A stretch of DNA of 64,000 bases from Candidatus Stammera capleta (GCA_015134375.1 CP043980.1:96384-160383); one strand, 5' to 3'; counted from the first letter of the stretch, positions 18,643 to 59,260 are shown. A program made the numbers and translations. The notes: a model not told the origin generated them from the letters alone.

Positions 18643-19039
<397 letters not shown>

Positions 19040-20947
19040 ATGTTTAATATAAAATATGATTTTGAAGTTATAATAATTGGAGGAGGTCATGCGGGTGTAG
19101 AAGCATCTTATATTCTTTCTAAAAAAAAATGTAATATTTTATTGATTACTTTTAGTAAAGATAAGATTTCTGAATTATCTTGTAATCCTTCTATAGGAGG
19201 TTTAGGTAAAAGTATTTTAGTAAAAGAAATAGATGTTTTAGGTGGTTTAATGGGTAAAGTAGTGGATTTATCAGGTATAAATTATAAAACTTTAAATAAG
19301 AGTAAAGGTTATTCTGTAAGAGCTACTAGAGTTCAAGTAGATAAGGATATATATAAATTTAATATTATTAAATATTTAAAAAATCAATGTAAATATTTAA
19401 CTATATTAGAAGATGAAGTTGTATCTTTAATTATTAGGAATAAAATTGTATATGGAGTTAAATGTATTAAGTTTGGTAATATTTATTCTAAATATGTTAT
19501 TTTATGTACTGGAACTTTTTTGGATTCTAAAATATTTATAGGTAATAATATATATGAGGGGGGTAGGTTAAATGATTTTAATTCTAAAGAATTGTCTATA
19601 TTTTTAAAAAAATATTTTAAATATGGTTATTTAAAAACTGGTACACCTCCTAGATTATTAAAGAAATCTATAGATTTTAATTTTTTTGAAAAACAAGTTA
19701 GTGATTTAAATTTAGTTTCTAAATTTTCTTTTTTTAGTAGTTTAAGGAATATATCTTCGTTATTACAAAAAAATTGTTATTTATCTAAAACTAGTAATAA
19801 TACATATAAAATAATTAATAAATATTTAATTAAAAGTCCTTTATTTAAAATTAATATAAATTCTAAAGGTCCTAGATATTGTCCTTCTTTAGAAGAAAAA
19901 ATAGTAAGATTTAAAGATAAAAAAAAACATAATATTTTTTTAGAACCTGAAAAAATAGATGGAGATTTAATATATCCTAATGGATTATCTATGTGTTTTT
20001 CTTTAAATATTCAAAAAAAAATTATTAATTCTATAAAAGGTATGTATAATACTAAAATAATTTTTCCAGCTTATGCAGTAAAATATATGTATTTAGATCC
20101 TATATTTTTAAATAAAAATTTAGAAAGTAAAATTATTAAAAATTTATTTATAGCTGGTCAAATAAATGGTACAACAGGTTATGAAGAAGCTGCAGCTCAA
20201 GGTTTGTTATCTGGTATTTTTTGTTATTTAAAAATAAAAAAGAAAAATATTAGTTTTTTTAATTTAAATAGATTAAATTCTTATATTGGTGTTTTAATTG
20301 ATGATATATGTACTAAGGGTATTAATGAACCTTATAGAATATTTAATTCTAGATCTGAATATAGTTTATTTATTAGGGAGGATAATACTGATATTAGATT
20401 ATTTTCTATATCTAATAATATAAAGTTAATTAGTTCAAAAAAATTAAAATTTTTAAAAAATAAAAAAAAGGAAATAAAAAATATATTTTTTTATTTAAAA
20501 AATAAAAAAATTAATTTTAAGAGTTTACCTTTATTTATAAAAAAAAAATTTAAAAAAAATAAGAAAATTAATATTAAATCTTTAATTTGTAATAAATTAA
20601 TAAGTTTTAATAAATTGAAATATTATTTATTTAAAAATAAAAATAAATTTTTATATAGTAAGTTTTTAAAAGAAGTTAAAATTTTATTTATATATGAAGG
20701 TTATTTAAAGAAACAAAAATTAGATTTATTAAAATATAAAATTTATGAAAATATATTTTTACCTAAAAATATAGATTATAATAAAATATATGGTTTGTCT
20801 AAAGAAGTTATTGAAATATTAAATTATTATAAGCCAAATTTTTTAGGTCAGATATTAAGGATTTCTGGAATTACACCTATATCTTTAATAATAATTTATT
20901 TTTATTTAAAAAAAAATAATTTATTATTTAAAAAATATATAAAATAA
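19040..20947 (+). CDS. mnmG: tRNA uridine 5-carboxymethylaminomethyl modification enzyme MnmG (GidA)
   Basis: A 635-aa intact ORF with FEVIIIGGGHAGVEAS (FAD site), SCNPSIGGLGKS, GPRYCPSLEEK, AGQINGTTGYEEAAAQGL. Confidence 0.95.
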   Translation: MFNIKYDFEVIIIGGGHAGVEASYILSKKKCNILLITFSKDKISELSCNPSIGGLGKSILVKEIDVLGGLMGKVVDLSGINYKTLNKSKGYSVRATRVQVDKDIYKFNIIKYLKNQCKYLTILEDEVVSLIIRNKIVYGVKCIKFGNIYSKYVILCTGTFLDSKIFIGNNIYEGGRLNDFNSKELSIFLKKYFKYGYLKTGTPPRLLKKSIDFNFFEKQVSDLNLVSKFSFFSSLRNISSLLQKNCYLSKTSNNTYKIINKYLIKSPLFKININSKGPRYCPSLEEKIVRFKDKKKHNIFLEPEKIDGDLIYPNGLSMCFSLNIQKKIINSIKGMYNTKIIFPAYAVKYMYLDPIFLNKNLESKIIKNLFIAGQINGTTGYEEAAAQGLLSGIFCYLKIKKKNISFFNLNRLNSYIGVLIDDICTKGINEPYRIFNSRSEYSLFIREDNTDIRLFSISNNIKLISSKKLKFLKNKKKEIKNIFFYLKNKKINFKSLPLFIKKKFKKNKKINIKSLICNKLISFNKLKYYLFKNKNKFLYSKFLKEVKILFIYEGYLKKQKLDLLKYKIYENIFLPKNIDYNKIYGLSKEVIEILNYYKPNFLGQILRISGITPISLIIIYFYLKKNNLLFKKYIK

Positions 20948-20993
20948 AATTATTTTATATATTTTTTAATATTTTTTTATAATTTTAGTATTT

Positions 20994-21770
20994 ATGAATA
21001 TAATTAGTAATCATTTAAAACATTTTTGTTTTAATTTATTTTATTTTAAATTATTAAATAATAATAATTATGTAAATTCATTTTTTAATATTAATATAGA
21101 TTCTTTATTAATATCTTTTTTATTATATATTTTAATTTTATTTGTATTTATATATTTTTTATTTGAAGTTAAATATTATAAATTACCTAATAAGATTGTT
21201 ATTTTTTTAGAATTAATTTTATTATTTGTATTAAAAAATATAAAAAAAATTAATGGTAAAAAAGATAAATATATATTTTCTTTATCTTTTTTAGTTTTTA
21301 ATTGAATATTTTTAATGAATTTGATGGGTTTATTTCCTATTAATATTATTAATTATTTTTTAAAAATATTTTTTAATATAGATAATTTTAAAATTGTACC
21401 TTCTTCTGATATAAATATTACTTTATCTATATCATTTTGTGTATTATTATATATATTTATATATAAAATTTTTAAAAAAGGTTTTATGAATATATTAGAA
21501 GATATTTTATTTAGTCCATTTAATAATAAATTATTTATATTTTTTAATATTTTATTAGAAGTAATAAATATTTTTTCTAAGTTGTTATCTTTATCATTAA
21601 GGTTATTTGGTAATATTTATTCTGGTGAAATAATATTTATTATATTATTATTTATTTCTCCATTATGATTACAATTCTTTTTTTTATTACCTTGATCTTT
21701 TTTACATATATTTATATCTTTTTTACAATCTTATATATATATGATATTAACTATAATATATTTTAACTAA
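20994..21770 (+). CDS. atpB: F0F1 ATP synthase subunit a
   Basis: Track ORFs 20994..21305 and 21315..21668 share one frame and join by TGA. The frame continues through TGA 21666-21668 to TAA 21768-21770. It contains LSLRLFGNIYSGE (the conserved a-subunit Arg motif). No atpI or rsmG lies between mnmG and atpB. Confidence 0.85.
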
Positions 21771-21797
21771 TTTGTTTTTATTTAAATATTTTGGTGA

Positions 21798-22037
<240 letters not shown>

Positions 22038-22054
22038 TTTTAATATAATATTTT

Positions 22055-22534
22055 ATGAAAATTAATATTACTTTTTTAATACAAACAATATTATTTATTT
22101 TTTATATATATCTTTGTATTAAATTTATTTGACCATATATAAATAATGTTATAGAAAAGAGAAAGAAAAAATTATATTTTGAATTAAAAAAAATTAAAAA
22201 TGCTAAATTTAAAATTTTAAAATTAAATAAAGAAATAGAAATAAAAAAAATAATTAGAAAAAATATATTTTTAAAGATAGAAAATGAAATTAAACAATCA
22301 AAATTAAATTTATTTAATAAATATAAAAAAAAAGCTAAATTTAAATATAATAAAATTATTAATGAAGCTAAATTAAAAATAAATTTAGAAAAAATTTATA
22401 TGTATAATAATTTTAATAAAAATATATATAAAATTATATATTTAATATTAAAGAAAACTACTTATAATACTTTTAATGAAAAATTAGACAATAAATTTAT
22501 TAGTAAAATTTTAAATAAATATAAATCATGTTAA
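22055..22534 (+). CDS. atpF: F0F1 ATP synthase subunit b
   Basis: Not in the track (TGA at codon 24). N-terminal TM MKINITFLIQTILFIFYIYLCIKFIWPYINNVIEKRKKK is followed by a long charged helix. The call also rests on position between atpE and atpH. Confidence 0.7.
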
Positions 22535-23079
22535 AAAAAAAATTGTGTTATTCTTATTCTTTATGTATTATAAATATAGTTAAAAAAAAAAAAATAAAAT
22601 ATTATAATAATTGAATAAAATTTTTAAAAATTTTATGTATTTTATCTAAAAATAATAGTATTAATAAATATTGAAATTATAAGTATTTAGTAAATAAAAA
22701 AATTATTTTAATATATAAATATTTTATATTTATAGATAATTTAATGATTAATTTTTTAACTTTAATATTAAAAGATAATTTATTTATTTATATTAAAATT
22801 ATATATAATATTTTTATTAATATTTTTAATTGTATAAATAATATTAAAAATATATATATATATTCTAGGAATTATATAAGTAAAATTAATTTTATTTTTA
22901 TTAAAAAAATTATTTTATGTAAATTTAAGGGTAAAATAAATTTTTTTTTTATTAAAAAAAAAAATATTATAGCTGGTTTTAAAATATTTATTAATGATTT
23001 TGTAATTGATTATAGTTTATTAAATATTTTTAAAAAAATTAAATTATTAAGTTATAATGGATTTAAAAATGTATTTTAA
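22528..23079 (+). CDS. atpH: F0F1 ATP synthase subunit delta
   Basis: ATG 22528 overlaps the atpF end by 7 nt and is in the same frame as track ORF 22744..23079 (joined via TGA codons). The C-terminus NIIAGFKIFINDFVIDYSLLNIFKKIK aligns with E. coli delta [26 protein letters not shown]. The rest is very degenerate. Confidence 0.65.
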
Positions 23080-24610
23080 ATTTGATGATATAAGTGAAAT
23101 AATTAAATCTAGATTAGATAAATTAAATAATATAAATTATTATTATGAAGGTAAAATTATTTCTATAATAGATGGAATAATTAATATTACTGGATTATCT
23201 AATGTTTTTTTAAATGAATTATTAGAATTTGATAATATTGGTTATGGTTTAACTTTAGAGTTAAATAGAGATTTTGTAAGTGCTGTTTATTTAGGTTTTA
23301 GTAGTAAATTAAAACCTGGTGTTAAAGTTAAAAGTACAGGAAAAACATTAAAAGTACCAGTTGGTAATAGTTTATTAGGTAGGATTGTTAATCCTTTAGG
23401 TAAATGTATAGATGGTAAAAATAATATTATAGAAGATAAGTTTTATTCAATAGAAAGAAAATCACCTTCAATAATAAATAGAAGGTATATAAATAGACCA
23501 TTATGTACTGGATATAAATCTATTGATAGTATGATACCTATAGGTTTAGGACAGAGAGAATTAATAATAGGTGATAGAAAGACAGGTAAAACTAGTTTAG
23601 TATTAGATATTATTATTAATCAAAAAAATTTAAATGTTAAATGTGTTTATGTTTCTATTGGACAAAAATTATCTAGTGTTTTTAATTTAATAGAAAAGTT
23701 AGATTATTTTGATGCATTAGATTATACTATATTTGTTGTTTCTACTTCTTCTGATGAAGCTATTATGCAGTATATAGCACCTTATTCAGGATGTTCAATA
23801 GCTGAATATTTTAGAGACAAAGGAGAAGATGTTTTAATTATATATGATGATTTATCTAAGCATGCTATAGCTTATAGACAAATATCTTTATTATTACGTA
23901 GATCTCCAGGAAGAGAAGCTTATCCAGGTGATATATTTTATTTACATTCTAGGTTATTAGAAAGATCTGCTTATGTTAATTATAATTTCATAAAAAATTA
24001 TAATAAAAATTATAAAGTTGAAGATATTACAGGTTCTTTAACATCTTTACCTATTGTAGAAACATATGAAGGTGATATATCTTCTTTTGTAGCAACTAAT
24101 ATAATTTCTATAACTGATGGTCAAATATTTTTAGAATATGATTTATTTAATTCTGGTATAAAACCAGCAATAAATCCTGGTATATCTGTTTCAAGAGTAG
24201 GTTCTTCTGCTCAAACTAAAATTATGAAATATTTATCTAGTTCTTTAAGAACTTCTTTATCTCAATATTATGAATTATCAAATTTTTCTCAATTTTCTTC
24301 TAATTTAGATGATAATACTATAAATCAATTAAATTATGGTAAAAAAATTGTTGAAATATTAAAACAGAATCAATATAGTCCTTGTTGTTTATTTAGGCAA
24401 GTATTAATATTATTTTCTTTAAAATATGGATATTTAGATAATGTAGATACAGAAAATATTTCTTTATATGAAGAAGAATTATATAATTATGCTTCTAAAA
24501 ATTTTATTAAATTTAAAAATAATATAAATAGTTTCGGTTTAATAGATAAAGATATAATTAAATTTTTAAAAAAAATTATTATTATATTTAAGAAAAAAAT
24601 ATTTATTTAA
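23057..24610 (+). CDS. atpA: F0F1 ATP synthase subunit alpha
   Basis: GDRKTGKTSL (P-loop), ..YDDLSKHAIAYRQISLLLRRSPGREAYPGDIFYLHSRLLER.. The start may instead be ATG 23069 (MYFKFDDISEIIKSRL, versus E. coli MQLNSTEISELIKQRI). Confidence 0.95.
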   Translation: MDLKMYFKFDDISEIIKSRLDKLNNINYYYEGKIISIIDGIINITGLSNVFLNELLEFDNIGYGLTLELNRDFVSAVYLGFSSKLKPGVKVKSTGKTLKVPVGNSLLGRIVNPLGKCIDGKNNIIEDKFYSIERKSPSIINRRYINRPLCTGYKSIDSMIPIGLGQRELIIGDRKTGKTSLVLDIIINQKNLNVKCVYVSIGQKLSSVFNLIEKLDYFDALDYTIFVVSTSSDEAIMQYIAPYSGCSIAEYFRDKGEDVLIIYDDLSKHAIAYRQISLLLRRSPGREAYPGDIFYLHSRLLERSAYVNYNFIKNYNKNYKVEDITGSLTSLPIVETYEGDISSFVATNIISITDGQIFLEYDLFNSGIKPAINPGISVSRVGSSAQTKIMKYLSSSLRTSLSQYYELSNFSQFSSNLDDNTINQLNYGKKIVEILKQNQYSPCCLFRQVLILFSLKYGYLDNVDTENISLYEEELYNYASKNFIKFKNNINSFGLIDKDIIKFLKKIIIIFKKKIFI

Positions 24611-24619
24611 GGGGTTATT

Positions 24620-25486
24620 TTGATAAATAAAAAATATTTAAAAAATAGAATTAATATTACTAAGTATGCTTTTAAAATAACTAAATCTATTGAAACTATA
24701 TCAATATCTAAATTAAAAAATTTAGAAAATAAATTGGTTAATAACAATTTATATAATAATTTTTTATTAAAAATTATAAATAATATAAAATTTTTAGATA
24801 ACTATTTATTTTATTTTAATAAAAATTTGAATTCAAGTAAGATTTTTTATTTAATTATTTTTACTGATCAAGGTTTATGTGGTAATTTAAATATTAATTT
24901 ATTTAATAAAGTTAAATTAGATATAATAAATAAAAAATATAATAATAATAAAAAAGTTTATTTTTTATTATTAGGAAATAAATCTATCTTTTTAAAAAAA
25001 TATATTATTAATAATTTAAATTTTAAAGTTAAAATTATTAATTATAAAATTTCTAATGAAATGTTATTTAATAATAAATTTAAATTTATATTTTTAATAA
25101 ATAAAGTAATTAGTATTTATAATATTAATAAATCTAATATTTATATAGTTTTTAATGTTTTAAAAAAATTTAAAATTATTAATAATATAAATAAGTTATT
25201 ACCTATTAATTGTTATAAAAATAAATATAATATTAATTATATTTATGAAAATATTAATTATTTTAATATTAAAAATATATTTTATAAATATATTGAATCT
25301 TTAATATTTAATGGTGTTTTAAATAATTTGATTTCTGAAAATTTTTCTAGAATAATTATAATGAAAAATGCTTCTAAAAATTCAGAAAATTTATATTATA
25401 AATTAAATATTATGTATAATAAATTACGTCAATTTAATGTTACTAAAGAAATAATAGAATTGATTTCTAATTTAGATATTTTGTAA
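24620..25486 (+). CDS. atpG: F0F1 ATP synthase subunit gamma
   Basis: TTG start preceded by AAGGGG (24609-24614). N-terminus ..RINITKYAFKITKSIETISISKLKN and C-terminus NKLRQFNVTKEIIELISN align to the conserved ends of gamma. Confidence 0.85.
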   Translation: MINKKYLKNRINITKYAFKITKSIETISISKLKNLENKLVNNNLYNNFLLKIINNIKFLDNYLFYFNKNLNSSKIFYLIIFTDQGLCGNLNINLFNKVKLDIINKKYNNNKKVYFLLLGNKSIFLKKYIINNLNFKVKIINYKISNEMLFNNKFKFIFLINKVISIYNINKSNIYIVFNVLKKFKIINNINKLLPINCYKNKYNINYIYENINYFNIKNIFYKYIESLIFNGVLNNLISENFSRIIIMKNASKNSENLYYKLNIMYNKLRQFNVTKEIIELISNLDIL

Positions 25487-25510
25487 AATTTTTATTTTAT
25501 GGTTATTTAA

Positions 25511-26890
<1,380 letters not shown>

Positions 26891-26899
26891 TTTTATATT

Positions 26900-27316
26900 A
26901 TGAATAAATTTAAAATTTGTATTTTAAATAAATTTTATATATTATTTGAATTATATATATATAATTTAAAGTTACTAAATATTGGATTAGAAATATATTA
27001 TAATCATACTCCATTATTATGTTATATTGATAAAAGTATTTTGTTATTAAATTATAAAAAAAAATATAAATTTTTTTTTATAATTAATGGTTTATTAGAA
27101 TTTAAAAATAATAAAATTATGTTAGTTACTGATAAATTAATAAATTATAGAGATATAAATAAAAATTTAATAAAAAAAAAAAAAAAAAAAATTGAAAAAA
27201 AAATATTAAAATATAAAAATTTAAATATTTTAGATAAATATTTATTCTATATTAATAAGAGAAATATATATATAGATTATTTAAATATTTTAAAATTTAA
27301 AAAATATTATAAATAA
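26900..27316 (+). CDS. atpC: F0F1 ATP synthase subunit epsilon
   Basis: A 138-aa ORF directly after atpD. The sequence is highly degenerate, so the call is mainly positional. It contains an in-frame A20 tract (27172-27191). Confidence 0.65.
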   Translation: MNKFKICILNKFYILFELYIYNLKLLNIGLEIYYNHTPLLCYIDKSILLLNYKKKYKFFFIINGLLEFKNNKIMLVTDKLINYRDINKNLIKKKKKKIEKKILKYKNLNILDKYLFYINKRNIYIDYLNILKFKKYYK

Positions 27317-30333: not shown

Positions 30334-31763
30334 TTAATTATAATATTTTTTTATAAATTTTGTTATTAAATAAATTGTTCTACCAGTAGAACCTTTGTTA
30401 TTTGATGCTGTGCCAGCTATATCTAAATGTGCTCATTTGTTTTTTTTAATAAATTTATTTAAAAAACATGCTGATATAATTGTGTCAGCATAATTTTTAT
30501 TACTACAATTTTTTATATCAGCTATATTTGATTTTATATATTTATTATATTTTTTAAACAAAGGTAATTCTCAAATATAGTCTTTTATTTTTTTACTTAT
30601 TTTAATTAATCTTTTTGATATTTTTTTATTATTAGTAATTAATGCACTTATCTTTTTTCCTAATGTATATATACATGATCCTGTTAATGTAGCTATAGTT
30701 ATTATTAATTTAGGTTTATATTTATTTGAGTATGATATTGCATCACATAATAATAATCTACCTTCAGCATCAGTATTTATTATTTCTATAGTTTTCTTTG
30801 ATAATGTTTTTATTATATCTCCTGGTTTAGTAGAATTATTATTTATCATATTTTCTGCACAGCATAATATTCCAATTATATTTATATTATATTTAAGTTT
30901 ATTAATAATATATATTATTGATAAAACTATTGCTGCTCCAGACATATCAAATTTCATTTCATTCATTTTAATATATGGTTTAAGACATAATCCTCCTGTA
31001 TCAAATGTTATACCTTTACCTATTATTATTATTGGTTTTTTTTTTTTTTTTTTATATTTTATTTTAATTAATTTAGATTTATTTAAAGATCCTTTATTTA
31101 CAGATAAATATGAATTCATACCTAATTTTTTCATTTTTTTTTCATTTAGATATGAAATTTTAATATTTTTACCTTTAATTAATTTTTTTGCTTTTTTTAG
31201 TATATAGTTTGTATTACAAATATTTGGTGGCATGTTACAAATATTTCTATTTATTTTAATAGCTTTTGATATTATTTTAGATTTATATATTGTATTTAAT
31301 ATTTTTTTTTTTTTTTTTTTTTAATGTTAAAATAAAAATGTGTTTTTATTTTTTTTTTATTTTTTTTAAATTTATTGAATTTATATGTATTATATTCAAT
31401 AATTTTTATTAAATTAAATATTTTTCAGTATATATTTTTTATTTTTAAATTTTTTAATAAAAATATTAAATTTTTATATTTATTATTATTTATTATTTTT
31501 AATATTTTTTTAACTAATATTTTAAATATATTAAAATTTATTTTATTAATTTTATATTTAATTATTATAATTTTTATTTTATTTTTTTTTTTATTTATTT
31601 TATATATATTATATTTTTTAATATTATTATTATTTTTAATTTTTTTATATATAATATTTTTATATTTTTTTAATTCTATTTTATTATTTTTATTTATAAA
31701 AATAATTATACAATCATATTTATTTATATTTTTATTTATATTTGTTTCTATTTTGTATTTCAT
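30334..31763 (-). CDS. pepA: leucyl aminopeptidase PepA, reading frame interrupted inside an A21 tract (needs +1/-2 nt to be read through)
   Basis: The N-terminal domain is in the frame of track ORF 31425..31763 (MKYKIETNINKNINKYDCIIIFINKNN..IEYNTYKFNKFKK..). The catalytic domain is in the frame of track ORF 30571..31233 and continues to TAA 30334-30336 (..AIKINRNICNMPPNICNTNYL..GKGITFDTGG..MKFDMSGAA..NTDAEGRLLLCD..WAHLDIAGTA). The two frames differ by one nt and meet only within the homopolymer 31302-31322. Confidence 0.85.
31302..31322 (-). repeat. A21 homopolymer on the pepA coding strand (T21 on + strand)
   Basis: Counted directly: 9 + 10 + 2 consecutive T on the + strand. This is the longest homopolymer seen in the window and the site of the pepA frame change. 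Confidence 0.9.
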
Positions 31764-31849
31764 ATATATATTTTATATAATTTATATATTTTATTTTTTA
31801 TATTATAATATTTTAATATTATGTTTTGTATTAAATTATAAAAATTATT

Positions 31850-32389
31850 ATGGTAAATATAAAAAATAATCTTTTTATAGGAAATAAAATTATATATTTA
31901 AATGAACCTTATTTAATTGAATTTGTAGAATTTATTAAACCAGGTAAATGTAAACCTTTTGTAAGATTAAAAATAAGAAATTTAATAAATTTTAAGTTAA
32001 TTGATAAAACTTTTAAATTTTTGAATAATATAAAAATTGCTAATATATTTTATTATAAATATAATTTTATATATAAAACTAAAGAAAATTTTTATTTTAT
32101 TAATAAAAATTTTAAACAAATTGTTATAGATAAAAAAATTATAAGTAATAATAAATATTTTTTACATAATAATAATAAGTATAATATAATTTTTTGAAAT
32201 AATAAACCTATAAATGTTATTATACCTAATATTATAAATGTTAAAGTATATTCAATAATTTCAAATAAAAATAATAAATTAAATTTAGTTAAGTTATATA
32301 ATAATTTAATTATTAAAGTACCTTATTTTATCAAAAAAAATGATTGAATAAAAATTAATATTAATAAAATTTATATTTCTAGATTATAA
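31850..32389 (+). CDS. efp: elongation factor P
   Basis: ..LNEPYLIEFVEFIKPGKCKPFVRLKIRNL.. (KPGKG loop with the modified Lys). Track ORF 31850..32197 continues through TGA 32195-32197 (the conserved Trp of ..TLWNG..) and a second TGA to TAA 32387-32389. Confidence 0.88.
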
Positions 32390-32400
32390 AAAATAAATAA

Positions 32401-32474
32401 CAGGGGCAGAAGGAATTGAACCCTCAACCTATGGTTTTGGAGACCATCGTTCTACCTAATTAAACTATACCCCT
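32401..32474 (-). tRNA. tRNA-Trp (anticodon CCA)
   Basis: The reverse complement reads AGGGGTATAGTTTAATTAGGTAGAACGATGGTCTCCAAAACCATAGGTTGAGGGTTCAATTCCTTCTGCCCCTG. Anticodon stem ATGGT/ACCAT, loop CTCCAAA. It is collinear with E. coli tRNA-Trp. The D-stem is GTTT/GAAC, i.e. A at position 24. Confidence 0.9.
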
Positions 32475-32485
32475 ATTTAATTTAT

Positions 32486-32558
32486 TAGGTCTAAGTGGAA
32501 TTGAACCACTGACCTCACCCTTATCAGGGGTGTGCTCTATCCTCTGAGCTATAGACCT
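32486..32558 (-). tRNA. tRNA-Ile (anticodon GAU)
   Basis: The reverse complement reads AGGTCTATAGCTCAGAGGATAGAGCACACCCCTGATAAGGGTGAGGTCAGTGGTTCAATTCCACTTAGACCTA. Loop CTGATAA. It is close to E. coli tRNA-Ile1. Confidence 0.9.
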
Positions 32559-32662
32559 TTAATTTTAATTAAAAATTAAATTAATAATATATTATCAAAT
32601 AATTGTTTTTATGTCATTATTAAAATATAATTAATTTAAAAAATTTAATTAAAAAAAAAATT

Positions 32663-33016
32663 ATGGATAAAATTAATATATTTAAAGAAATTTTAAAAAG
32701 AAAAATTAAATCAGATATAATTTATAGAGATTTTTTTGTTACAGCATTTAATGATATTAATCCTGTGGCACCTATTCATATAATATTAATACCTAATAAT
32801 TATATTAAAAATATTAATAATGTTAATAATTCTGATATATTTATTTTAGGTAAAATGTTATTAGTTTGTTCTAAAATTGCAAAATATAAAAATATTGATA
32901 TTAGTGGTTATAGATTAGTAATTAATTGTAATAAAGATTCAGGTCAAGAAATTGATTATTTTCATATTCATATTTTAGGTGGTAAATTTTTAGGTAATTT
33001 TATTTGTAATATTTAA
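32663..33016 (+). CDS. hinT: HIT-family purine nucleoside phosphoramidase (HinT-like)
   Basis: It aligns along its whole length to E. coli HinT: IFKEILKRKIKSDIIYRD..VTAFNDINPVAPIHIILIP..GYRLVINCNKDSGQEIDYFHIHILGG (histidine triad). Confidence 0.88.
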   Translation: MDKINIFKEILKRKIKSDIIYRDFFVTAFNDINPVAPIHIILIPNNYIKNINNVNNSDIFILGKMLLVCSKIAKYKNIDISGYRLVINCNKDSGQEIDYFHIHILGGKFLGNFICNI

Positions 33017-33031
33017 TAATTTTATATATTT

Positions 33032-34693
33032 ATGAAAACAAAAAATTATTGTTTATTTACTAATAAAAATAAAAAATTTGATAATAATATATATAATATA
33101 TTAATTAATGGTGGTTTTATTAGAAAATTATGTTCAGGTATTTTTATTATATTACCTAATGGTTTAAGGATTATTAATAATATTATTAATATAATAAAAT
33201 TAGAAATGAATAATTTTAATTGTTTAGAAATAAAATTACCTTCTATCATACCTTCAATATTATGAAAAAAAAGTGGTAGATTAAAAAGTTATGGTGATGA
33301 ATTATATAAAATATATGATAGGAATAATAAATTATTTTTAATTTCTCCTACTAATGAAGAAGTTATTACTAATTTTTTTTTTAAAGAAAAATATTTATTA
33401 AATAATTTCCCTTATATTTTTTATCAAATTAATGATAAATTTAGAGATGAAATTAGACCTAGATTTTCATTAGTTAGATGTAAAGAATTTATTATGAAGG
33501 ATGCTTATTCATTTCATAAATCATTAAATTGTTTAAATAATATTTATTATAAAATGATTGATATTTATAAAAAAATATTTAATTTACTTGGTTTAAATAT
33601 TTTTTATAAAAAAGCTAAATGTGGTAAAATAGGTGGTAGTTATTCACATGAATTTCATGTTTTATCTAATTATGGTGAAAATAATATATTAATTAATAAA
33701 ATTATATATAATAAAATATTTTATAAATTTAAAAATAAAAATATTTATTTAAATAATTTAAAGTATTTATATATAAATAAAAAAGATAGTTTTATTAATA
33801 AAGTTAATTTTTTTAATTTTGTTAAAACTTATATATTGAAAATTTTTTTTAGAAGTAAAATAATTTTTTTAATATTATTAATTGCTTATTATAATAAAAT
33901 AGATTTAAATAAAGTTAAAAAATTATATCCTTTATGCATTAAAATAAAAATTTTAGATAAAAAGGATATTTTAAATATTTTTAATATAAATTATATATTT
34001 TTAGGACCATTTGGTTTTAATTTTAGAATAATAGCAGATAATTTTTTAATAAATTATAAAAATTTTTTAATAGGTTCTAATTTAAATAATTATATTTTTA
34101 AAAATGTTAATTGAATTTTACATATTAATGTTTCAAATTTTGTTGATATAAAAAAAAATTATAGTTTTTTTGTAGATAAATGTAAATATTTAGATTTATT
34201 TAAAGAAAAAAAATCAATGGAAATTGCACATGTTTTTAAATTATCTAATTATTATTCAAATTTTTTTAATAATAATAATAATGATATATTTATGGGATGT
34301 TATGGTATAGGTGTTTTTCGTATTTTTATTAGTTTAATTGAGAGTTATAGTATTTCAGGAAAATTAATATTACCTTTATCTATATCTAATTTTAAAATAG
34401 GTATTATACCAATTAATATGTATAATATTAAAATTGTTTATAATTTATCTTTTAAAATATATAGATTTTTAATTAAAAATAAAATTGAAGTATTAATAGA
34501 AAATAGAGATATATATTTTGGTAATATGATAAATGATTTTGAATATATAGGTATTCCTAATATTATAATTATTAGTGAAAGATTATTGTTAAATAACTTA
34601 ATTGAATTTAGAGATAGATTTAATAAATTAAATCAATTTATAAATATAAATAAAATTTTTGATTTTTTATTATTTAAATATATTAAAAATTAA
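33032..34693 (+). CDS. proS: prolyl-tRNA synthetase (bacterial type with INS domain)
   Basis: Track ORFs 33032..33265, 33494..34114 and 34217..34693 are all in one frame and bridged by TGA codons. Motifs: W-KKSGRLKSYGDELY, FRDEIRPRFSLVRCKEFIMKDAYSFH, GGSYSHEFHV, MGCYGIGVFRI. Confidence 0.9.
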
Positions 34694-36000
34694 TAATTTT
34701 TTTTAAATATTATATTTCAATTTTTTTTTTTATATTTACCATATTTAGTTACAAATAAATTTGGACTTAATATAGGTTTTTTATTATAAAATATTATTGG
34801 AGTAAATTCTCTTTCTCAAGGTAATATATTATATTCTTGTCATATTTTTTTAATTTTTTTTTTTTTTTTTTTATATATTTGTATTTTTTTTTTTATTTTA
34901 AATTTTATATATATTTTTTCATTTTTATAAGGTTTTCTTATTTTATTTTTATATTTATATTTTTTTTTGTTTTTTTTATTTATATATAATATTCCAATTT
35001 TATTAGGTAATTTTATATATTTATTTTTTTTATTTCATAAAATTTTTTTATTTTTTAATTTATTTATTTTTTTACTTAAATAAAGTTTATTTTTATATTT
35101 ATTTATATTAAATTTTTTAAAGTTTAATTGAAAATATTCTTTTTTTTTATTTTTTTTAATATTTTTTATAAGTAAATTAATTAATTTATATGAAAGTACT
35201 TTTTGTTTATTTAAATTTATAAATTTTCTTAATATTATTATAATTTCTTCTTTTTTTAATTTTATTATTTTTTTTATGTTAATTATTTTATTTTTTATTA
35301 TTTTTTTAATTTTTTTTTTCATTAAGTATTTTATTAATTTATTTTGATTTTTACATATTTTTGAATTTCTTATTATTGATGATATAAAAAATGGTCATCT
35401 TTTATTTATTATTGGTAATATTTTAATTCTTAGAAAGTTTCTATCTAATTTTAGATTTTTGTTTTCTATATCTTCTATTCATTTAATTTTTTTTTTTATA
35501 GCATATCTTTTAATTTCTTTTTTATCTATATTAATTAATGGTCTTATAATGTTTAAATTATTTATTTTTTTTTTTTTTTTTATTCCTGTTAATCCTTTAA
35601 TTCCACATCCTCTTATTAAATATAAAATAATAGTTTCTAAATTATCATTTTTATGATGTGCAGTTAGTAATATTTCTTTTTTTTTTATGTATTTTTTATA
35701 ATAACTATATCTTTTTTTTCTTAAATTATTTTCTAAATTTTTTTTATATTTTTTATATATTTTTTTAATTATTAATTGTATTTTTAATTTTTTACAAAAA
35801 TTTATACAATGTTTTTCTATTTTTATAGATTTATTATTTAAATTATGATTTATATGTATTGCTCTTACATTTTTTTTTTTAATTTTTTTTATTATATAAA
35901 GTAATACTGTTGAATCTAATCCTCCACTATATCCTATTAAAAAATTTTTTTTTTTTTTTATTAAATTTTTAACTTTATTTTTTATTGAAAGTTTATTCAT
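34690..36000 (-). CDS. tilS: tRNA(Ile)-lysidine synthase TilS
   Basis: PP-loop LIGYSGGLDSTVLL. The frame of track ORFs 35479..36000 and 35035..35322 continues through TGA codons (WIEDIENKNLKLDRNFLR.., RWPFF..) and an in-frame T19 tract to the TilS C-terminal motif KKIWQEYNILPWEREFTPIIFYNKKPI and TAA 34690-34692. I checked codon by codon from 35035 to the stop. Total 436 aa. The stop overlaps the proS stop. Confidence 0.85.
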
Positions 36001-38329: not shown

Positions 38330-39592
38330 ATGAATTTTACGCAATTAAAAAGTATGTCTATTTCTGAATTAATTAATTTAGGAAAAAAAATTGGATTAGA
38401 AAATTTAATTAGAATGCGTAAACAAGATATAATTTTTTCTATTTTAAAACAACATACTAAAAGTGGTGAAAATATTTTTGGAAATGGAGTTCTAGAAATT
38501 TTACAAGATGGTTTTGGTTTTTTAAGATCTTCTGATAGTTCATATTTAGCTGGACCTGATGATATATATGTTTCTCCTAGTCAAATACGTAGATTTCATT
38601 TAAGAACTGGTGATACTATAACTGGTAAAATTAGACCACCTAAAGAAATAGAACGTTATTTTGCTTTATTAAAAGTTAATAAAATTAATTATGATAAACC
38701 AGAAAATTCTATTAATAAAATATTATTTGAAAATTTAACACCTTTACATGCTAATAATAGATTATATATGGAAATAGGTGATGGATCTTATGAAGATATT
38801 ACTGCTAGAGTTTTAGATTTATCTGCTCCTATAGGTAAAGGACAAAGAGGTTTAATAGTAGCACCTCCTAAAGCTGGTAAAACTATATTATTACAAAATA
38901 TAGCTAGAAGTATAAATAATAATTATCCTGATTGTATTTTAATAATATTATTAATTGATGAAAGACCAGAAGAAGTTACAGAAATGAATCGTTTAGTAAA
39001 AAAAAGTGAGGTTATAGCTTCTACTTTTGATGAACCTCCATCTAGACATGTTCAGGTTGCTGAAATGGTTATAGAAAAAGCTAAAAGATTAGTAGAACAT
39101 AAAAAAGATGTTATTATATTATTAGATTCTATTACTAGATTAGCTAGAGCGTATAATACTGTTGTTCCTGCATCTGGTAAGATTTTAACTGGAGGTATTG
39201 ATTCTAATGCATTACATAGACCAAAAAGATTTTTTGGTGCTGCTAGAAATATTGAAGAAGGAGGTAGTTTAACAATAATAGCTACTGCTTTAATAGATAC
39301 TGGATCTAAAATGGATGAAGTTATTTATGAAGAATTTAAAGGTACTGGTAATATGGAATTACATTTATCAAGAAAAATATCTGAAAAAAGAATATTTCCT
39401 GCGATAGATTATAATAGGTCAGGTACTAGAAAAGAAGAGTTATTAACATCTTCAAATGAGTTAAAGAAAATATGAATTTTAAGAAGAATTATTCAACCAA
39501 TGAATGAAATAGATTCTATGGAATTTTTAATAAAAAAGTTATTAATGACTAAAACTAATAATCAATTTTTTGAAATGATGAAAGGATCTTAA
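38330..39592 (+). CDS. rho: transcription termination factor Rho
   Basis: Highly conserved: [66 protein letters not shown]. The track ORF continues through TGA 39473-39475 to TAA 39590-39592 (420 aa). It follows trxA as in E. coli. Confidence 0.97.
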
Positions 39593-39667
39593 TTATTTAA
39601 ATAATTTATTATATATAATTTAGTAGTTTTTTTTTTAAAATTTTTATATAATATTTAATTAATATAT

Positions 39668-39741
39668 GGTGGTTATAGCTTAGTAGGTAGAGCACTGGAT
39701 TGTGGTTCCAGTTGTCATGGGTTCGATTCCCATTAACCACC
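39668..39741 (+). tRNA. tRNA-His (anticodon GUG)
   Basis: An extra 5' G(-1) pairs with C73 (GGTGGTTA../..TAACCACC). Anticodon stem CTGGA/TCCAG, loop TTGTGGT. Confidence 0.9.
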
Positions 39742-39745
39742 TTTT

Positions 39746-39819
39746 CGGTGAGTAGCGCAGTTTGGTAGCGCAACTGGTTTGGGACCAGTAGGTCGGAGGT
39801 TCAAATCCTCCCTTGCCGA
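39746..39819 (+). tRNA. tRNA-Pro (anticodon UGG)
   Basis: CGGTGAGTAGCGCAGTTTGGTAGCGCAACTGGTTTGGGACCAGTAGGTCGGAGGTTCAAATCCTCCCTTGCCGA. It is collinear with E. coli proM. Confidence 0.9.
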
Positions 39820-39850
39820 TATTTAAATTATTGAATAATTTTTTTTTTAA

Positions 39851-41482
39851 ATGAAAAAAAATATATTAGTTACATGTGCTTTTCCTTATTCTAATGGTCC
39901 TATTCATTTAGGTCATATTTTAGAACATATACAGGCAGATATATGAGTTAAGTATCAAAGATTATTAGGTAATAATGTTTATTTTATGTCTTCTGATGAT
40001 TCTCATGGTACTGCTGTTTTATTAAAATCTAAAGAATTAAATATTAATATAAAAAATATGATATATGAAAATTTTATTTCTCATAAAAATCAATTTTTTA
40101 AATTTAATATTATTCATGATATTTATTATAATACTAATAGTAAATATAATAAGTTATTTTTAATCAATTTAATAAAAAAATGTAATAAAAATAATTTATT
40201 ATATATTAAAAATATATTACAGTATTATGATATTAAAAAGAAAATTTTTTTACCTGATAGATATTTAATAGGAATATGTCCTAAATGTAAAAGTAATAAC
40301 CAGTATGGTGATAATTGTAATATATGTGGTGGATTTTATAATTCTTTAAATTTATTAAAACCTAAATCTATAATTAGTAATAGTATTCCTATATTACGTA
40401 ATTCAAAAAATTTATTTTTAAATATTACTAGATTTAAAAATAATATTTTAGATTGATTAAAAAATATAAAATTAAATGAATGTATTTTAAATCAATTAAT
40501 TAATTTTTTAAGTACTGATAATTTATTTGATTGAAATATTTCTAGAGATAAGCCTTATTTTGGTTTTAGAATTCCTAGTAATATTATAAATGAAAAATAT
40601 TTTTATGTTTGATTTGATGCTTTATTAGGTTATATAAGTTTATTTTATAAATTTTGTATTAAAAATAATAATAAAATATTATTTTATAATTTTTGAAATT
40701 TAAATAGTAATTATGAAATATATAATTTTATTGGTAAAGATGTATTATATTTTCATGGTATATTATGACCTTGTATTTTAGAAATTTTTAATTATAGAAA
40801 ACCTACTAATATAATAGTTCATGGTCATATTTTAGTAAATAATATTAAAATGTCTAAATCTTATGGAAATTTTATTACTATTTGTAAATGGTTAAATTAT
40901 TTTGATTCAGATAGTTTAAGATATTATTTTGCTAGTTTATTGTCTAGTAATGTATGTGATATTAATTTTTGTTTTAGAAATTTTATTAATAAAATAAATT
41001 CAGATTTAGTTAATAAATTTGTAAATATTGCTTCTAGAAACTCAACTTTTTTAGAAAATAAATTTAATAATATTTTATCTAATAAGTTATGAGATTATAA
41101 ATTTTATTATTTATTTTTAAATAAAAAAAATAAAATAAATGATTTGTATTTAAATTTTAATTATTCTAAAATATTGTTAGAAATAAATATATTATTTGAT
41201 ATTGTTAATAAATATATTAATGATAATAAACCTTGATATTTTTTTAATAATAATTTTAATAAATTACATATGTTTTGTACTACAATAATTAATATTTTTA
41301 GAGTTATATCTATTTATTTATATCCTATTATACCTAATATAATTAAAAAAGTAGAAATATATTTAAATGAAGTTTTAAGTTGAGATTCTTTAAATAATAT
41401 TTTATTAAATCATAAATTGTCAAAATATAATGTTTTATATTCAAAAATATTTTATAATAATGTTTTTGATTTAAATAAATAA
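39851..41482 (+). CDS. metG: methionyl-tRNA synthetase (core enzyme, no C-terminal tRNA-binding domain)
   Basis: [37 protein letters not shown].., zinc knuckle [39 protein letters not shown]. The track ORFs 39986.. and 40850.. are in this frame. The gene ends at TAA 41480-41482. Confidence 0.92.
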
Positions 41483-41544
41483 ATATTTTAAAATTATTAA
41501 TTTTAATATAATATATATGTATATATAAATATAGGGTTTTATTA

Positions 41545-41751
41545 ATGATTTATTTAAATATGAAAAAATCTATTAAAAATGTAAATAATAAGTTTGATTT
41601 GATTTTAATTACATCTTTTTTATCAAGACATATACAATTATATAATAAAAAATTTAATATAAAAAAATTAGATAAACCAATTATATTGGCTTTAAAAAAA
41701 ATTAGAAATAGAATTTTAAATAAAAATTTAATATTAAATATTATTATTTAA
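41545..41751 (+). CDS. hypothetical small basic protein (68 aa; alternative start 41560)
   Basis: An uninterrupted ORF in an otherwise unassigned 279-bp gap between metG and cca, on the same strand as both. I recognise no motif. An open frame of this length is unusual by chance at this AT content but not impossible. Confidence 0.3.
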   Translation: MIYLNMKKSIKNVNNKFDLILITSFLSRHIQLYNKKFNIKKLDKPIILALKKIRNRILNKNLILNIII

Positions 41752-41761
41752 AATATAAAAA

Positions 41762-42961
41762 ATGAAAATATATTTAGTAGGGGGATTTGTTAGAGATAAG
41801 TTATTAAAAATAAAAAGTTCTACAGATAAAGATTGAGTAGTTGTAGGTTCTAGTTATAATAAAATGATTAATTTAGGTTATAAATCTGTAGGAAAAATTT
41901 TTCCAGTTTTTATTCATCCTATTACTAAAGAAGAATATGCTTTAGCACGTAAAGAAAAGAAAATTGGTTTAGGATATAAAGGATTTAAATGTAATTATTC
42001 AAATAAAATTTCTTTAAAAGATGATTTATATAGAAGAGATTTAACTATAAATGCAATTGCTATGGATTGTTATGGAAATTATTATGATCCTTTTAAAGGT
42101 ATTTTAGATATAAAAAATAGAATTATTAGACATGTTTCTATTTATTTTCAAGATGATCCTTTAAGATTAATAAGAATAGCTAGATTTTATTCTTATTTAT
42201 TTGATTATAAATTTAGGATTAATTTTGATACTTTCATATTAATGAAGAAAATAGTTTTTAATAATGAATTAGTTAATATTTCTCCTGAAAGAATATGAAT
42301 AGAATTGAAAAAAGTTTTATCTTATAAATATTGTTTTTTTTTTTTTGTTATATTAAATGATTGTAATGCTTTAAATATAATTTTTCCTGAATTATTTTTT
42401 GTTTTTAATAATTTTAAATATAAATTTTATTTTTATTTATTTTTTAAAAAAGTTGATTTTTTTAAATATAATTTAGATTTAAATTTTGTTTTTTTATGTT
42501 TTTTTTTTTATAAAACTATTTTTTCAGATGAATATTTTATATATTATAAATTTACATTTAATAAAATAAGAAATTTTTGTTTAAGATTTCATTTACCTAG
42601 TAAATATTTTGTTTTATTTAGTAGAATTTTTTTTATATTAAAAGATATTTTTTTTTATAAAAAAAAAAAAAAATCTATTTTTATATTAGATATTTTTTAT
42701 AAAGCAAATATATTTAATAATTTAAGTATTTTGTTTAATATTTTAAAAGTAATTGATATTTTAATTAAATTTAATTTTAAAAATAAAAATATTTTAATTT
42801 TTTTACAAAATAATTTATATAAAATATTTAATTTATTAAATAATATCAATTATTATAAATTTATTAATTTTGTTAATAAAAAAAATATAAAAAAAAATAT
42901 ATATAATTTACGTTTAATTAAAATAAATAATTTTTTAAAAAAAATTAAAATTTTTCATTAA
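41762..42961 (+). CDS. cca: CCA-adding tRNA nucleotidyltransferase
   Basis: MKIYLVGGFVRDKLL..DKDWVVVGSS..VGKIFPVFIHPITKEEYALARKEKK..RRDLTINA..DPLRLIRIARF..ISPERIW-IELKK aligns residue for residue with the E. coli Cca head domain. Track ORFs 41864.. and 42305.. are in frame. Confidence 0.9.
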
Positions 42962-43940
42962 TTTTTCATTTTGGTTTTATAATTATTTTTAATGTTTTTT
43001 TTATTTTTTTTATATTTTTTTTTGATGCTGTATATGCTATCATTGTTGCATTATCAGTACAAAATTTTTTATTACATAAATATATATTTATTTTTTTTTT
43101 TTTTAAATTTTTTATTTTTTTTCTTAATTTTTTATTTTTACTTACACCCCCAACAATACTTATTTTATTAATATTATATTTTTTACATGCATTTTTTATT
43201 TTATATATAAATATATCTGTTATACATTCTTCTAATGATAAAGCTATATTAGATTTTTTTTTAAAATTTATTTTGTTATTATTAATATAATTTTTTATAT
43301 GTGTTTTTAATCCAGAAAAACTAAAATTTAAATTATTTTTTTTTATTAATGGTTTAGGAAAATTTAAGTTTATTTTTCCATATTTGGCTATTTTAGATAT
43401 ATATTTACCACCTATTTTTTTTAATTTAAGAAATTTAGATATTTTATCAAATACTTCTCCTGCTGAATCATCTAAACATTTTCCAATAATTTTATATTTA
43501 TTAAAATTTTTAATTATACATAGTAAAGTATTTGCGCCTGATGTTATTAATGATATAAAAGGAAATTTAGGTTTTTTTTTTTTTAGCATTATTGACATAA
43601 TATGTCCTTCAATATGATTTATAGGTATAGATGGTATTTTATAAATTAAAGATAAAGTTTTAGCCAAAGTTGTACCTATTATTAATGAATTTGGTAATCC
43701 TGGACCTGCAGTATATGCAATTAATTTTATATTTTTAATTTTTATTTTTGATTTTTTTATTATTTTTTTAAATAAGTATATTATTTTTTTATAATGGTAT
43801 TTTGATGCTATTTCAGGTATTATTCCTTTATATTTATTATTTATTTTATTTTGACTAAATATTTTGTTTATTATTTTATTTTTTTTATATATACATAATG
43901 CTGTTTCATCGCATGAAGTTTCTATTCCTAGTATTATCAT
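42918..43940 (-). CDS. tsaD: tRNA N6-adenosine threonylcarbamoyltransferase TsaD
   Basis: MIILGIETSCDETALCIY.., INHIEGHI, GGVSKN. The track ORF ends at TGA 42966-42968, which aligns with the conserved C-terminal Trp (..PRW..). With code 4 it continues to TAA 42918-42920 and overlaps the cca 3' end by 44 nt. It is divergent from rpsU, as in E. coli. Confidence 0.9.
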
Positions 43941-44040
43941 ATATTTATTTTTTTTTTAAATTATTATATAATAATAATATTATATATTTAAAATTTTTAA
44001 TTTATTTAAATTTAATTTTTTATTATAGGAATCTTAATTT

Positions 44041-44247
44041 ATGCCTTTTATTAAAATTAAAGATAATGAACCTTTTGATATGGCTTTAAGAAGATTTAAA
44101 AGATCTTGTGAGAAATCTGGTATTTTAACTGAAATTCGTAAAAGAGAATTTTATGAAAAACCAACTACTAAAAGAAAAAGAGCTAAAGCTTCGGCTATAA
44201 AAAGACGTATAAAGAAAAATTTTAATGATAGAATTTATAAAAGATAA
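44041..44247 (+). CDS. rpsU: 30S ribosomal protein S21
   Basis: [47 protein letters not shown]. Confidence 0.95.
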
Positions 44248-44277
44248 AATTTTAAAATATTTTATTTTTATTTTTTT

Positions 44278-46020
44278 ATGTCATATATTTCTCGTTTGTT
44301 TATTGATAAATTATTATCTATAACAGATATTGTCAATATTATTTCATCTAAAATATCTATTTTTAGAATAGGTAATTATTATAAATCATTTTGTCCTTTT
44401 CATGAAGAAAAAAATCCTTCTTTTATTATTAATAAACATAAACAATATTTTTATTGTTTTGGGTGTAAATCATATGGTAATGTAATTAGTTTTTTAATGA
44501 AAATTAATAATTATAATTTTATTGATGCTATAAAAGAATTATGTAATATTAATAATATATCTATTGAAAATTATAATTTTAATTGTAATATTAATTATGA
44601 TAAAAAAAGAGAATTATATTTTAAATTAACTTTAAATTTTAATAAAATTTATATTAAGTCTTTATTTTTTAATTTAAATATTAATTATATTAAAAAATTT
44701 TTTATAAGTAGAAATATAGATTATAAAAGTATACATAATTTTTCTATAGGTTTTTCATGAAATATTTTAGTTAATAAATTTATATATAATTTAAATAAAA
44801 AATATAAAAAATTTTTATTCAAATTAGGTTTTTTAATTAAAGATAAAAATGGTAATTTTTTAGATAGGTTATATAATAGAATAGTATTTCCTATTTATGA
44901 TTTAAAAGGTAATATTATAGCTTTTGGTGGAAGATGTTTATTTAATAATAAATTTTTTTGTAAGTATATAAATTCTAGTAATAATATTTATTTTACTAAA
45001 AGTAAATGTTTATTTAATTTATTTAATATTATTAAAAATAATAATAAATTAGATAAAATTTTAGTTGTTGAAGGTTATATAGATGTTATTATGTTATCTA
45101 AATATGGAATTAATTATAGTGTAGCTTTATTAGGTTCTAATATATCTAAATATCAAATAGATATTTTATATTTTTATACTAATAAAATAATATTTTGTTT
45201 TGATGGTGATAAATCTGATTATTCATTTATAAAAAATATAATTTATTTATTAATTTCTTATGTAAATGAAAATAAAATGTTTTTTTTTATTTTTTTACCT
45301 ATAGGTGAAGATCCAGATTCTTTAATTAGAAAAGAAGGTAAAATATTATTTGAAAATAGAATTAATAATGCGTTATCTATTTTTGATGTAATATTTAAAG
45401 TTTTTTCAGTTAATAATTTATATACATATACTGAACAAATTCATTTTATATCTTCTTTGATGCCTATTATATATAAAATAAATTGTCCTATAATAAAAAA
45501 TTATTTTAGATTAAAAATTAGTAATAAAATAGGAATATTAAATGATAAATTTTTAGAAAAGTATTTATTATTAAAAACAAATAAAAAAAATAAAAAAGTT
45601 AAAATTACTATAATAAGATGTTTAATAAGTTTATTATTAAAATATCCTTATTTATCTTATAATGTTAATTTATATGATAAATTGTTTATAAATAAAAATA
45701 TTATTCCAGGTTTATTATTATTTTTGGATATTGTTAATTTATGTATTAATAATAAAAATATTACTATATATGAAATTTTATATAAGTATAAAAATTCTAA
45801 TATAAAAATTTATTTAATTAAATTATTTTTATGAAATTATTTTCCTAAAAAAATTAATTGTAATTTAATATTTAATGATGCTTTAATTAAATTAAAATTA
45901 TTTATTATTAAAAATATATTAAAAAAATTATTAATTAATAATAATAATTTATATGAATTAAGTTTAAATCAAAAAATAAAAATATGAAATTTAATTAAAT
46001 TAAAAAAATTAAATTTTTAA
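44278..46020 (+). CDS. dnaG: DNA primase
   Basis: Zinc finger CPFHEEKNPSFIIN..FYCFGCKSYGN. RNAP/Toprim region DRLYNRIVFPIYDLKGNIIAFGGR, LVVEGYIDVIML, CFDGDKSD. Track ORFs 44278.. and 45091.. are in one frame. The gene ends at TAA 46018-46020 (580 aa). Confidence 0.92.
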
Positions 46021-46054
46021 TTTTTTTTATTTATTTATAATTATTTATTTTAAT

Positions 46055-47869: not shown

Positions 47870-47874
47870 TTAAT

Positions 47875-48450: not shown

Positions 48451-48490
48451 TTTATATTTTATTTAAAATATATATATGTATTAAATTTTT

Positions 48491-50716: not shown

Positions 50717-50770
50717 AAAAAATTTATATTTATTTTTTATTTTATTATTTTAATTTAACTATTTTATTTT

Positions 50771-57040: not shown

Positions 57041-57095
57041 ATAAATAATAATATAATATATTTATTAAGTTTTATATTTTTTATTAAAATATTTA

Positions 57096-57178
57096 ACGGA
57101 AGTGGCGAAATTGGTAAACGCACTAGAATTAGAATCTAGTACTTATATAGTTTACGAGTTCAAATCTCGTCTTCCGTA
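57096..57178 (+). tRNA. tRNA-Leu (anticodon UAG)
   Basis: Acceptor ACGGAAG/CTTCCGT. Anticodon stem CTAGA/TCTAG, loop ATTAGAA. Long variable arm. T-arm ACGAG-TTCAAAT-CTCGT. Confidence 0.88.
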
Positions 57179-57187
57179 TTTTATTGG

Positions 57188-57259: not shown

Positions 57260-57267
57260 TAATTATT

Positions 57268-57341: not shown

Positions 57342-57366
57342 TTTAAAATTAATATTATATATATAT

Positions 57367-58710: not shown

Positions 58711-58714
58711 TTTT

Positions 58715-59161: not shown

Positions 59162-59260
59162 TTTATTTATTATTTTTTATTGTTTTAATTTTTAAATTAT
59201 ATATAATTAATGGTGTATGTTTAATTATTTATTTTTTTATATATATAAAGTTTTAATAAA

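Follow-up and report, generated by a model that had tools for sequence, protein, structure and literature searches.

A pepA gene split within a 21-nucleotide poly(A) tract in Candidatus Stammera capleta: miscalled length, population variation or transcriptional slippage

Bacterial RNA polymerase has been reported to slip on A/T runs of about 9 nucleotides (nt) or more (PMC5009743). Homopolymeric runs accounted for 151 of the 157 transcription insertions recorded in Buchnera; most transcription insertions were of a single base, and their rate climbs exponentially with run length (PMC5574713). We consider here a comparable locus, the leucyl aminopeptidase gene pepA, in a 64,000-nt stretch of Candidatus Stammera capleta (GCA_015134375.1, CP043980.1:96384-160383), which is referred to throughout as the window. 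This tortoise beetle symbiont is the only gammaproteobacterial symbiont reported to combine UGA as a Trp codon with about 15% GC (PMC10540940). As PMC5009743 summarises Tamas et al. (2008), the poly(A) frameshifts of Buchnera and Blochmannia resemble pepA in their setting, a tiny AT-rich insect-symbiont genome, and in their nature, a 1-nt frameshift in a lysine-encoding poly(A); both gene halves are otherwise intact there as well and the correction needed is the addition of one A. The pepA gene of the window changes frame inside an A21 tract, the longest among the 38 homopolymers that reach 12 nt or more within the 64 kb. We find that the split is more likely an effect of length calling or population variation than a fixed lesion needing rescue. 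What a preliminary description of this DNA had observed is confirmed, and its interpretation, rescue by transcriptional slippage, is partly supported: slippage is plausible, but the data can be explained without it.

The locus is made up of the following features, given in window coordinates:

30334..31763, minus strand: whole pepA locus (leucyl aminopeptidase, M17), 476 amino acids (aa) with one A added in the tract
31296..31763, minus strand: upstream reading frame, from ATG 31763 through the N-terminal domain and seven lysines (K7) to TAT and TAA, 155 aa
31302..31322, minus strand: A21 tract on the coding strand (T21 on the plus strand), the sole site with both frames open
31321..31323, minus strand: TAA of the downstream frame, that of the catalytic domain, closing it at the tract's 5′ edge
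31296..31298, minus strand: TAA ending the upstream frame, two codons past the tract
30334..31320, minus strand: downstream reading frame, linker helix and M17 catalytic domain, ending at TAA 30336-30334
31231..31233, minus strand: internal ATG within the conserved NMPPNICN motif, coding for Met178 of the repaired protein; P0002, a 299-aa product in the protein collection, starts here
31036..31053, minus strand: second long pepA tract, A18 encoding K6, in frame

The preliminary description had placed the break inside T21 at 31302-31322, and both the sequence and the coordinates that it gave are correct throughout. The upstream frame, 155 codons from ATG 31763 with one TGA (Trp) at 31427-31425 and seven AAA, does run through the poly(A) and stops two codons beyond it, at 31298-31296; the downstream frame is closed at 31323-31321, as had been read, and stays open from there to its own TAA. 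The distance of 530 nt between 31763 and 31233 is indeed 2 mod 3, and the overlap of the two open frames is confined to the tract, which is the only place where they can be joined. Repair in silico bore out the two proposed corrections, one added A (A22) giving 476 aa and two fewer (A19) giving 475 aa. All out-of-frame products end within 2-6 codons. Neither half contains a stop under translation table 4, so that the claimed lack of further stops outside the tract holds under that table, and the other indels of pepA are net frame-neutral.

The choice of table matters. At 14.8% GC, the window uses genetic code 4, with TGA at conserved Trp positions of pepA, for example in NKWAHLDIAG: the TGA at 31427-31425 and two more in the C-terminal half of pepA are Trp codons, among them the W of KWAHLDIAG. 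A list of open reading frames (ORFs) made with table 11 fragments many genes of the window, including pepA, efp, valS and atpB. ORF reasoning on this DNA must use table 4.

One line of evidence for our reading comes from an independent assembly of the same strain. Logan contigs of run SRR10017627 were retrieved with window proteins free of TGA codons; the left side of the pepA tract lies outside this comparison, as valS and the C-terminal half of pepA contain TGA. Four contigs match the window, at 31302-34872, 18724-27182, 56253-64000 and 38504-51751, adding up to 33,026 nt free of mismatches and gaps. Spanned by these matches are 13 homopolymers of 12-19 nt, each of the same length as in the window. 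One of them, SRR10017627_158 (L083), is 100% identical to window 31302-34872 (3571 nt), and the other three cover 29.5 kb without any difference. L083 begins with T22 followed by AATGTTAAA, at a place where the window has A, then T21, then AATGTTAAA. This 22nd T is the only discrepancy between the two assemblies of the strain over the 33,026 nt, and the only base at which they disagree is thus the base that decides the frame of pepA.

In the k=31 pipeline of Logan, every k-mer of a contig occurs in the reads, which is understood to mean at least twice. Since every k-mer of L083 occurs in the reads, reads or molecules with at least 22 T's exist in the sample; at that node, the k-mer with exactly 21 T's had not been kept. 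The two ends of L083 coincide with the pepA tract and the tilS tract; at the latter the contig stops with 19 T's, the assembled length. Logan contigs break inside the A20, the A21/22 and the A19 tracts, and one of them carries the T22; from the contigs alone, real variation and stutter look the same. The contigs show that the longest tracts (A19-A22) are heterogeneous in length at the read level. The preliminary description had allowed for the possibility that the tract is really A22 and the split a simple assembly error. The T22 at the tract edge of the independent assembly goes part of the way towards this, contig ends being no measure of modal length.

Relatives were found through the protein cluster of P0002 and through contigs encoding related proteins; the matches listed in a profile scan of genome contigs with the PepA alignment were all to distant free-living proteobacteria. 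The closest PepA proteins are encoded in single-contig genomes of 245-313 kb, and the farther ones in Buchnera, Donacia symbionts and similar bacteria. The sister genome (GCA_036884335.1, CP145599.1, 245,200 bp) encodes an intact PepA of 501 aa, which falls in the same 90% cluster as the 299-aa C-terminal product of the window. Its 21.5-kb locus (L082) is collinear with the window at about 90% DNA identity. At the orthologous site it reads AATATT-A22-TATT, in frame, encoding FNIKKKKKKKILKIIYKSK. In the alignment of the two pepA genes, one 1-nt gap falls exactly in the tract, and it is the only gap that changes the net frame; the others (1 and 2 nt lying 28 nt apart, net 3, as well as 6 and 3 nt) leave it unchanged. 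To judge by this alignment, the placement of the frame change in the tract is not a matter of chance. The window-sister indels at corA and yccV affect only variable C-terminal tails or intergenic DNA.

The gene is intact, at 478-499 aa, in all of about 30 relatives with genomes of 250-313 kb, and the out-of-frame state is unique to this assembly. The comparison with related strains that the preliminary description had envisaged therefore gave no second case: nobody shares the break, the sister's A22 being in frame. Since the frameshift is absent from the sister and from all relatives, there is no evolutionary sign of a maintained out-of-frame state. The orthologous tract forms a series, from TDKINILKYKK in one Stammera genome (L088), through A9CATA8 (KKKHKKN) in another (L086) and A12TA9 (KKKNKKK) in the outgroup (L001), to A22 in the sister and A21 in the window. 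This series shows that the tract grew by AT-biased loss of interrupting bases and that the site is recent. As the sister has A22 and this assembly A21, A22 is probably the ancestral state of the two.

Two further peculiarities of the sister's pepA deserve mention. Its stop codon has been lost (TAA to AAA; L082 11431-11506, window 30334-30336), which lengthens the ORF by 25 codons to 501 aa and makes it overlap the start of valS in another frame. It also has a second in-frame tract, an even longer A25 (K8) at L082 10388-10412, which precedes the A22 by 20 nt; the corresponding window sequence (31349-31367) is A8-T-A10-T-A5.

A parallel case was found in tilS of the same sister genome (L082 5753-7062; window 34690-36000), which carries a -1 frameshift in an A18 tract where the window has an in-frame A19 (34854-34872). 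Frame 0 of the sister gene stops right after KKKKKK, and the conserved C-terminal 55 aa (KKIWQEYNIFPWKRQFTPIIFYNKKPILSPN...) can still be read in the shifted frame; the annotated length of the gene is 382 aa, where other genomes have 437-444 aa. The window, L086 and L088 all have an intact tilS. This is the pepA phenomenon again, now in a gene that is essential. Within 21.5 kb, then, both sister genomes have a single -1 lesion each in a very long poly(A), next to similar or longer tracts that are in frame (A25 and A22 in L082; A20 and A19 in the window). Read from the sequences alone, this pattern fits either stochastic errors in length calling or genuine tolerance of tracts that are out of frame.

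Taken together, these observations suggest that the A21 may well be a homopolymer length-call error or length variation within the population, a reading that we hold with middling confidence. Under it, pepA would carry a poly(A) of about 22 nt where the N-terminal domain meets the linker helix, in a surface region that varies and should tolerate 6-8 lysines. The in-frame length would be A22, and the deposited A21 would be the tract called one base short; alternatively, copies with A21, A22 and A23 would coexist in the symbiont population. Faithful copying of such a long tract is not to be expected of short-read chemistry, of library preparation by the polymerase chain reaction (PCR) or of the replicative polymerase. 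Full-length PepA would then be made directly from A22 templates, with no special rescue needed, and we infer that A22 is the true or major allele. PCR and sequencing stutter is strong at mononucleotide runs longer than 15-20 nt and biased to contraction, which matches a -1 error. The 50-genome Stammera collection was assembled with MEGAHIT from PCR-based Illumina 2x150 libraries and includes 13 re-used public read sets (bioRxiv 10.1101/2023.12.12.571295).

Several points weigh against a miscalled or variable length. All 36 other genic homopolymers of 12-20 nt lie inside uninterrupted ORFs, up to the A20 of atpC and including two A19, and because they keep frame, length calling in the deposited assembly is generally good. 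A 22-T k-mer requires only two reads or more and could be +1 stutter on a true A21. The window may have been assembled from reads other than those of SRR10017627. One contig (L084) ends after 11 of the 20 A's of the in-frame atpC tract (window 27172-27191). The authors of the Stammera collection describe curating local assembly errors (bioRxiv 10.1101/2023.12.12.571295). The A18 lesion of the sister, lying beside in-frame A22 and A25 tracts, looks unlike a purely length-dependent artefact.

The atpC contig may stop there because tract length differs between reads, or because some members of the population have a variant that breaks up the tract. Reading modal tract lengths from the ends of Logan contigs was rejected on account of this contig. 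Pervasive homopolymer error was likewise rejected, given the other long tracts in frame and the 13 Logan-spanned tracts that match the independent assembly.

Whatever the length of the tract, pepA has the marks of a working gene. Rates of non-synonymous and synonymous substitution (dN and dS) were compared between the window and L082 by the Nei-Gojobori method under code 4. The dN/dS of the whole gene is 0.148, with 0.33 in the N-terminal half and 0.079 in the catalytic half; the neighbouring genes valS, HIT, proS and efp give 0.19, 0.34, 0.37 and 0.51, respectively. When amino-acid changes are polarised with the outgroup L001, the window branch has 21 and the sister branch 20, divided into 14 and 11 in the N-terminal half and 7 and 9 in the catalytic half. 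With about 778 non-synonymous sites in the catalytic half and a dS of about 0.2 per branch, neutrality along the whole branch would give on the order of 150 replacements. We infer, roughly, that any neutral phase would cover only a few per cent of the window branch. No relaxed selection and no further lesion after the frameshift were found in the dN/dS, polarised changes, stops and indels of pepA. The argument that the gene is still under selection was therefore right: its dN/dS is low and the window branch has no excess of change, and on this evidence pepA is still selected and appears functional. An old pseudogene is excluded by the low dN/dS and by the 21 against 20 changes. This leaves a lesion that arose very recently, one that is tolerated, or one that is not real.

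The repaired protein points the same way. It matches the NCBIfam leucyl aminopeptidase equivalog NF002074 in one stretch (residues 1-471) at 450.4 bits, above the cut-off of 415, a match above cut-off that holds only for the repaired A22 sequence. It also aligns continuously with residues 82-493 of E. coli PepA (1GYT), including NTDAEGRL, and this alignment puts the lysine run where the N-terminal domain joins the linker helix. In a 31-sequence PepA alignment, the sequence around the tract is variable, and K250, D255, K262, D273, D332, E334 and R336 (repaired numbering) are invariant columns. The M17 spacing of Lys, Asp, Lys, Asp, Asp, Glu and Arg (+5, +7, +11, +59, +2, +2) is present. We take these seven residues, from what is known of bovine LAP and E. 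coli PepA, to be the metal ligands and catalytic residues of the family. Both halves had been called well conserved. This is true of the catalytic half, where PF00883 (Peptidase_M17) matches residues 172-464 with E = 7.1e-109; the N-terminal half has a weak match to PF02789 (residues 73-136, 18-20 bits), below the gathering score of 23.4.

Among the alternatives, rescue by transcriptional slippage survives best, and we regard it as possible, if rather doubtful. By analogy with the other endosymbionts, A21 may be fixed or dominant, and RNA polymerase may slip back on T21 and add one A (less often giving -2 or +4), so that A22, A19 and A25 mRNAs would yield full-length PepA with 6-8 lysines. The anatomy of the locus fits this exactly and pepA shows no decay. 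The tract is more than twice the slippage length of about 9 nt, and 12-50% of transcripts are corrected in frameshifted genes of the endosymbionts Buchnera and Blochmannia (PMC5009743); the +1 change that pepA needs is the dominant type of slippage at A/T runs (PMC5574713, PMC5009743). The sister's tilS, with its conserved part downstream of the -1 lesion at A18, suggests that such lesions are tolerated in the clade. Out-of-frame transcripts would be cheap, terminating within a handful of codons, and transcripts of a tract this long may vary so widely that one nucleotide more or less in the DNA makes hardly any difference to the share in frame. However, the frameshift is present in neither the sister nor the other relatives, and nothing shows that it is maintained; the independent assembly of the same strain has T22; and the study of transcription errors in Buchnera found no frame that was actually restored (PMC5574713).

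A broader form of the same idea can be put forward only tentatively. In the most AT-rich Stammera lineages, a poly(A) of at least 18 nt may be effectively frame-agnostic, through an imprecise RNA polymerase and perhaps the ribosome, so that conserved or essential genes would function in whatever frame the DNA has and 1-nt changes would drift freely, as in pepA here and in tilS of the sister.

It is unlikely that the frameshift is real and very recent and that pepA is a nascent pseudogene, of which only the 155-aa N-terminal fragment would be made and the catalytic half would not be usefully expressed. Replication slippage makes an A22 hypermutable, mildly deleterious lesions can become fixed in small symbiont populations, and long tracts are commoner in the clade of the window and its sister: per about 21 kb, the window has 9 runs of 15 nt or more and the sister 7, and two other Stammera genomes have 2 each (comparison of window 20231-41658 with L082, L086 and L088). 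Nearly all long runs are coding-strand poly(A) encoding lysine runs. Set against a nascent pseudogene are the intact genes of all of the approximately 30 relatives, the even changes on the two branches together with the catalytic-half dN/dS of 0.079, the lack of a second lesion, and the 22-T k-mers in reads of the same strain.

We consider it quite improbable that a real frameshift is handled in translation, with ribosomes either sliding on the 21 A's into the downstream frame or stopping at TAA 31298-31296 and re-initiating at ATG 31233, which would release a putative free catalytic domain of 299 aa. In E. coli, iterated AAA lysine codons do make ribosomes pause, slide and shift to another frame (PMC4363877), and over short distances 70S ribosomes are able to slide and then re-initiate (PMC11194080). 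The candidate start lies 63 nt downstream of the upstream-frame stop, at NMPPNICN, 6 residues into the Pfam match (172-464), so that its product would keep nearly the whole catalytic domain. It has no Shine-Dalgarno sequence, which would be no obstacle where most genes of the window start without one. But pepA is split in no relative, and the N-terminal half is under purifying selection (dN/dS 0.33; 14 against 11 changes), which is not expected of a useless fragment. A programmed slippage site with two products was rejected, the tract being young and the sister in frame.

As to translation starts in general, among 21 confident gene starts of the window (13841, 13524, 16515 and 44041, for example) a GAGG was seen in groES, groEL and ptsH only and an AGGA in rpsU; rplJ and ybeY have a 3-nt match only (AGG, GGA). 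The other 15 of the 21 have no Shine-Dalgarno match and lie behind pure A/T leaders.

The meaning of the locus depends on which of these readings is right. Our literature search found no paper linking Stammera itself with slippage or frameshifts. If the A21 is real, pepA would belong with the known cases, with no new mechanism involved; it would be the first case found of a tolerated poly(A) frameshift in Stammera and the longest such tract, and together with tilS of the sister it would reveal the extent to which expression may become independent of the DNA frame in extremely AT-rich genomes. If long tracts are in fact frame-agnostic, slippage rescue would extend from the intracellular Buchnera and Blochmannia to an extracellular, code-4 symbiont of about 15% GC, with far longer tracts. 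If the A21 is an artefact, calls of pseudogenes and gene content (Pseudofinder, pangenome "core" lists) can err at tracts of at least 18 nt; pepA is then to be counted as present in the strain, and the split is an annotation caveat only.

Compared with the Buchnera and Blochmannia cases from which we set out, the tract in Stammera is about twice as long, and its host genome belongs to a gut symbiont that is extracellular, uses code 4 and has about 15% GC. The lesion in pepA is shared with no relative, its genomic length is in doubt given the T22, and it is known here from DNA alone. For Blochmannia, selection has been proposed to maintain ancient frameshifts, conserved homopolymer frameshifts being shared across species. 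These conserved frameshifts are like pepA in that indels concentrate in homopolymers and the affected genes are still under selection; they differ in being shared across species, whereas the sister of the window has its pepA in frame.

Programmed slippage, as in Thermus dnaX, the transposases of insertion sequences and Shigella mxiE, also relies on realignment at about 9 A/T or more to produce mRNAs in another frame (PMC1088944, PMC5009743). Those sites are conserved and short and serve two products or regulation, whereas the pepA site is recent and nothing suggests that two products are wanted. The contingency homopolymers behind phase variation in pathogens are hypermutable coding runs with DNA-level on/off switching, which a mixed population of A21 and A22 would resemble; in contrast to them, pepA shows no sign of an adaptive on/off role and is a housekeeping peptidase retained in all relatives. 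Short-read homopolymer errors, finally, are at odds with the 36 other genic tracts (12-20 nt) in frame and with the agreement at the 13 tracts (12-19 nt) that the Logan contigs span, but they share with pepA a lone -1 in the longest homopolymer of the region, two assemblies that differ only there, and PCR-based libraries.

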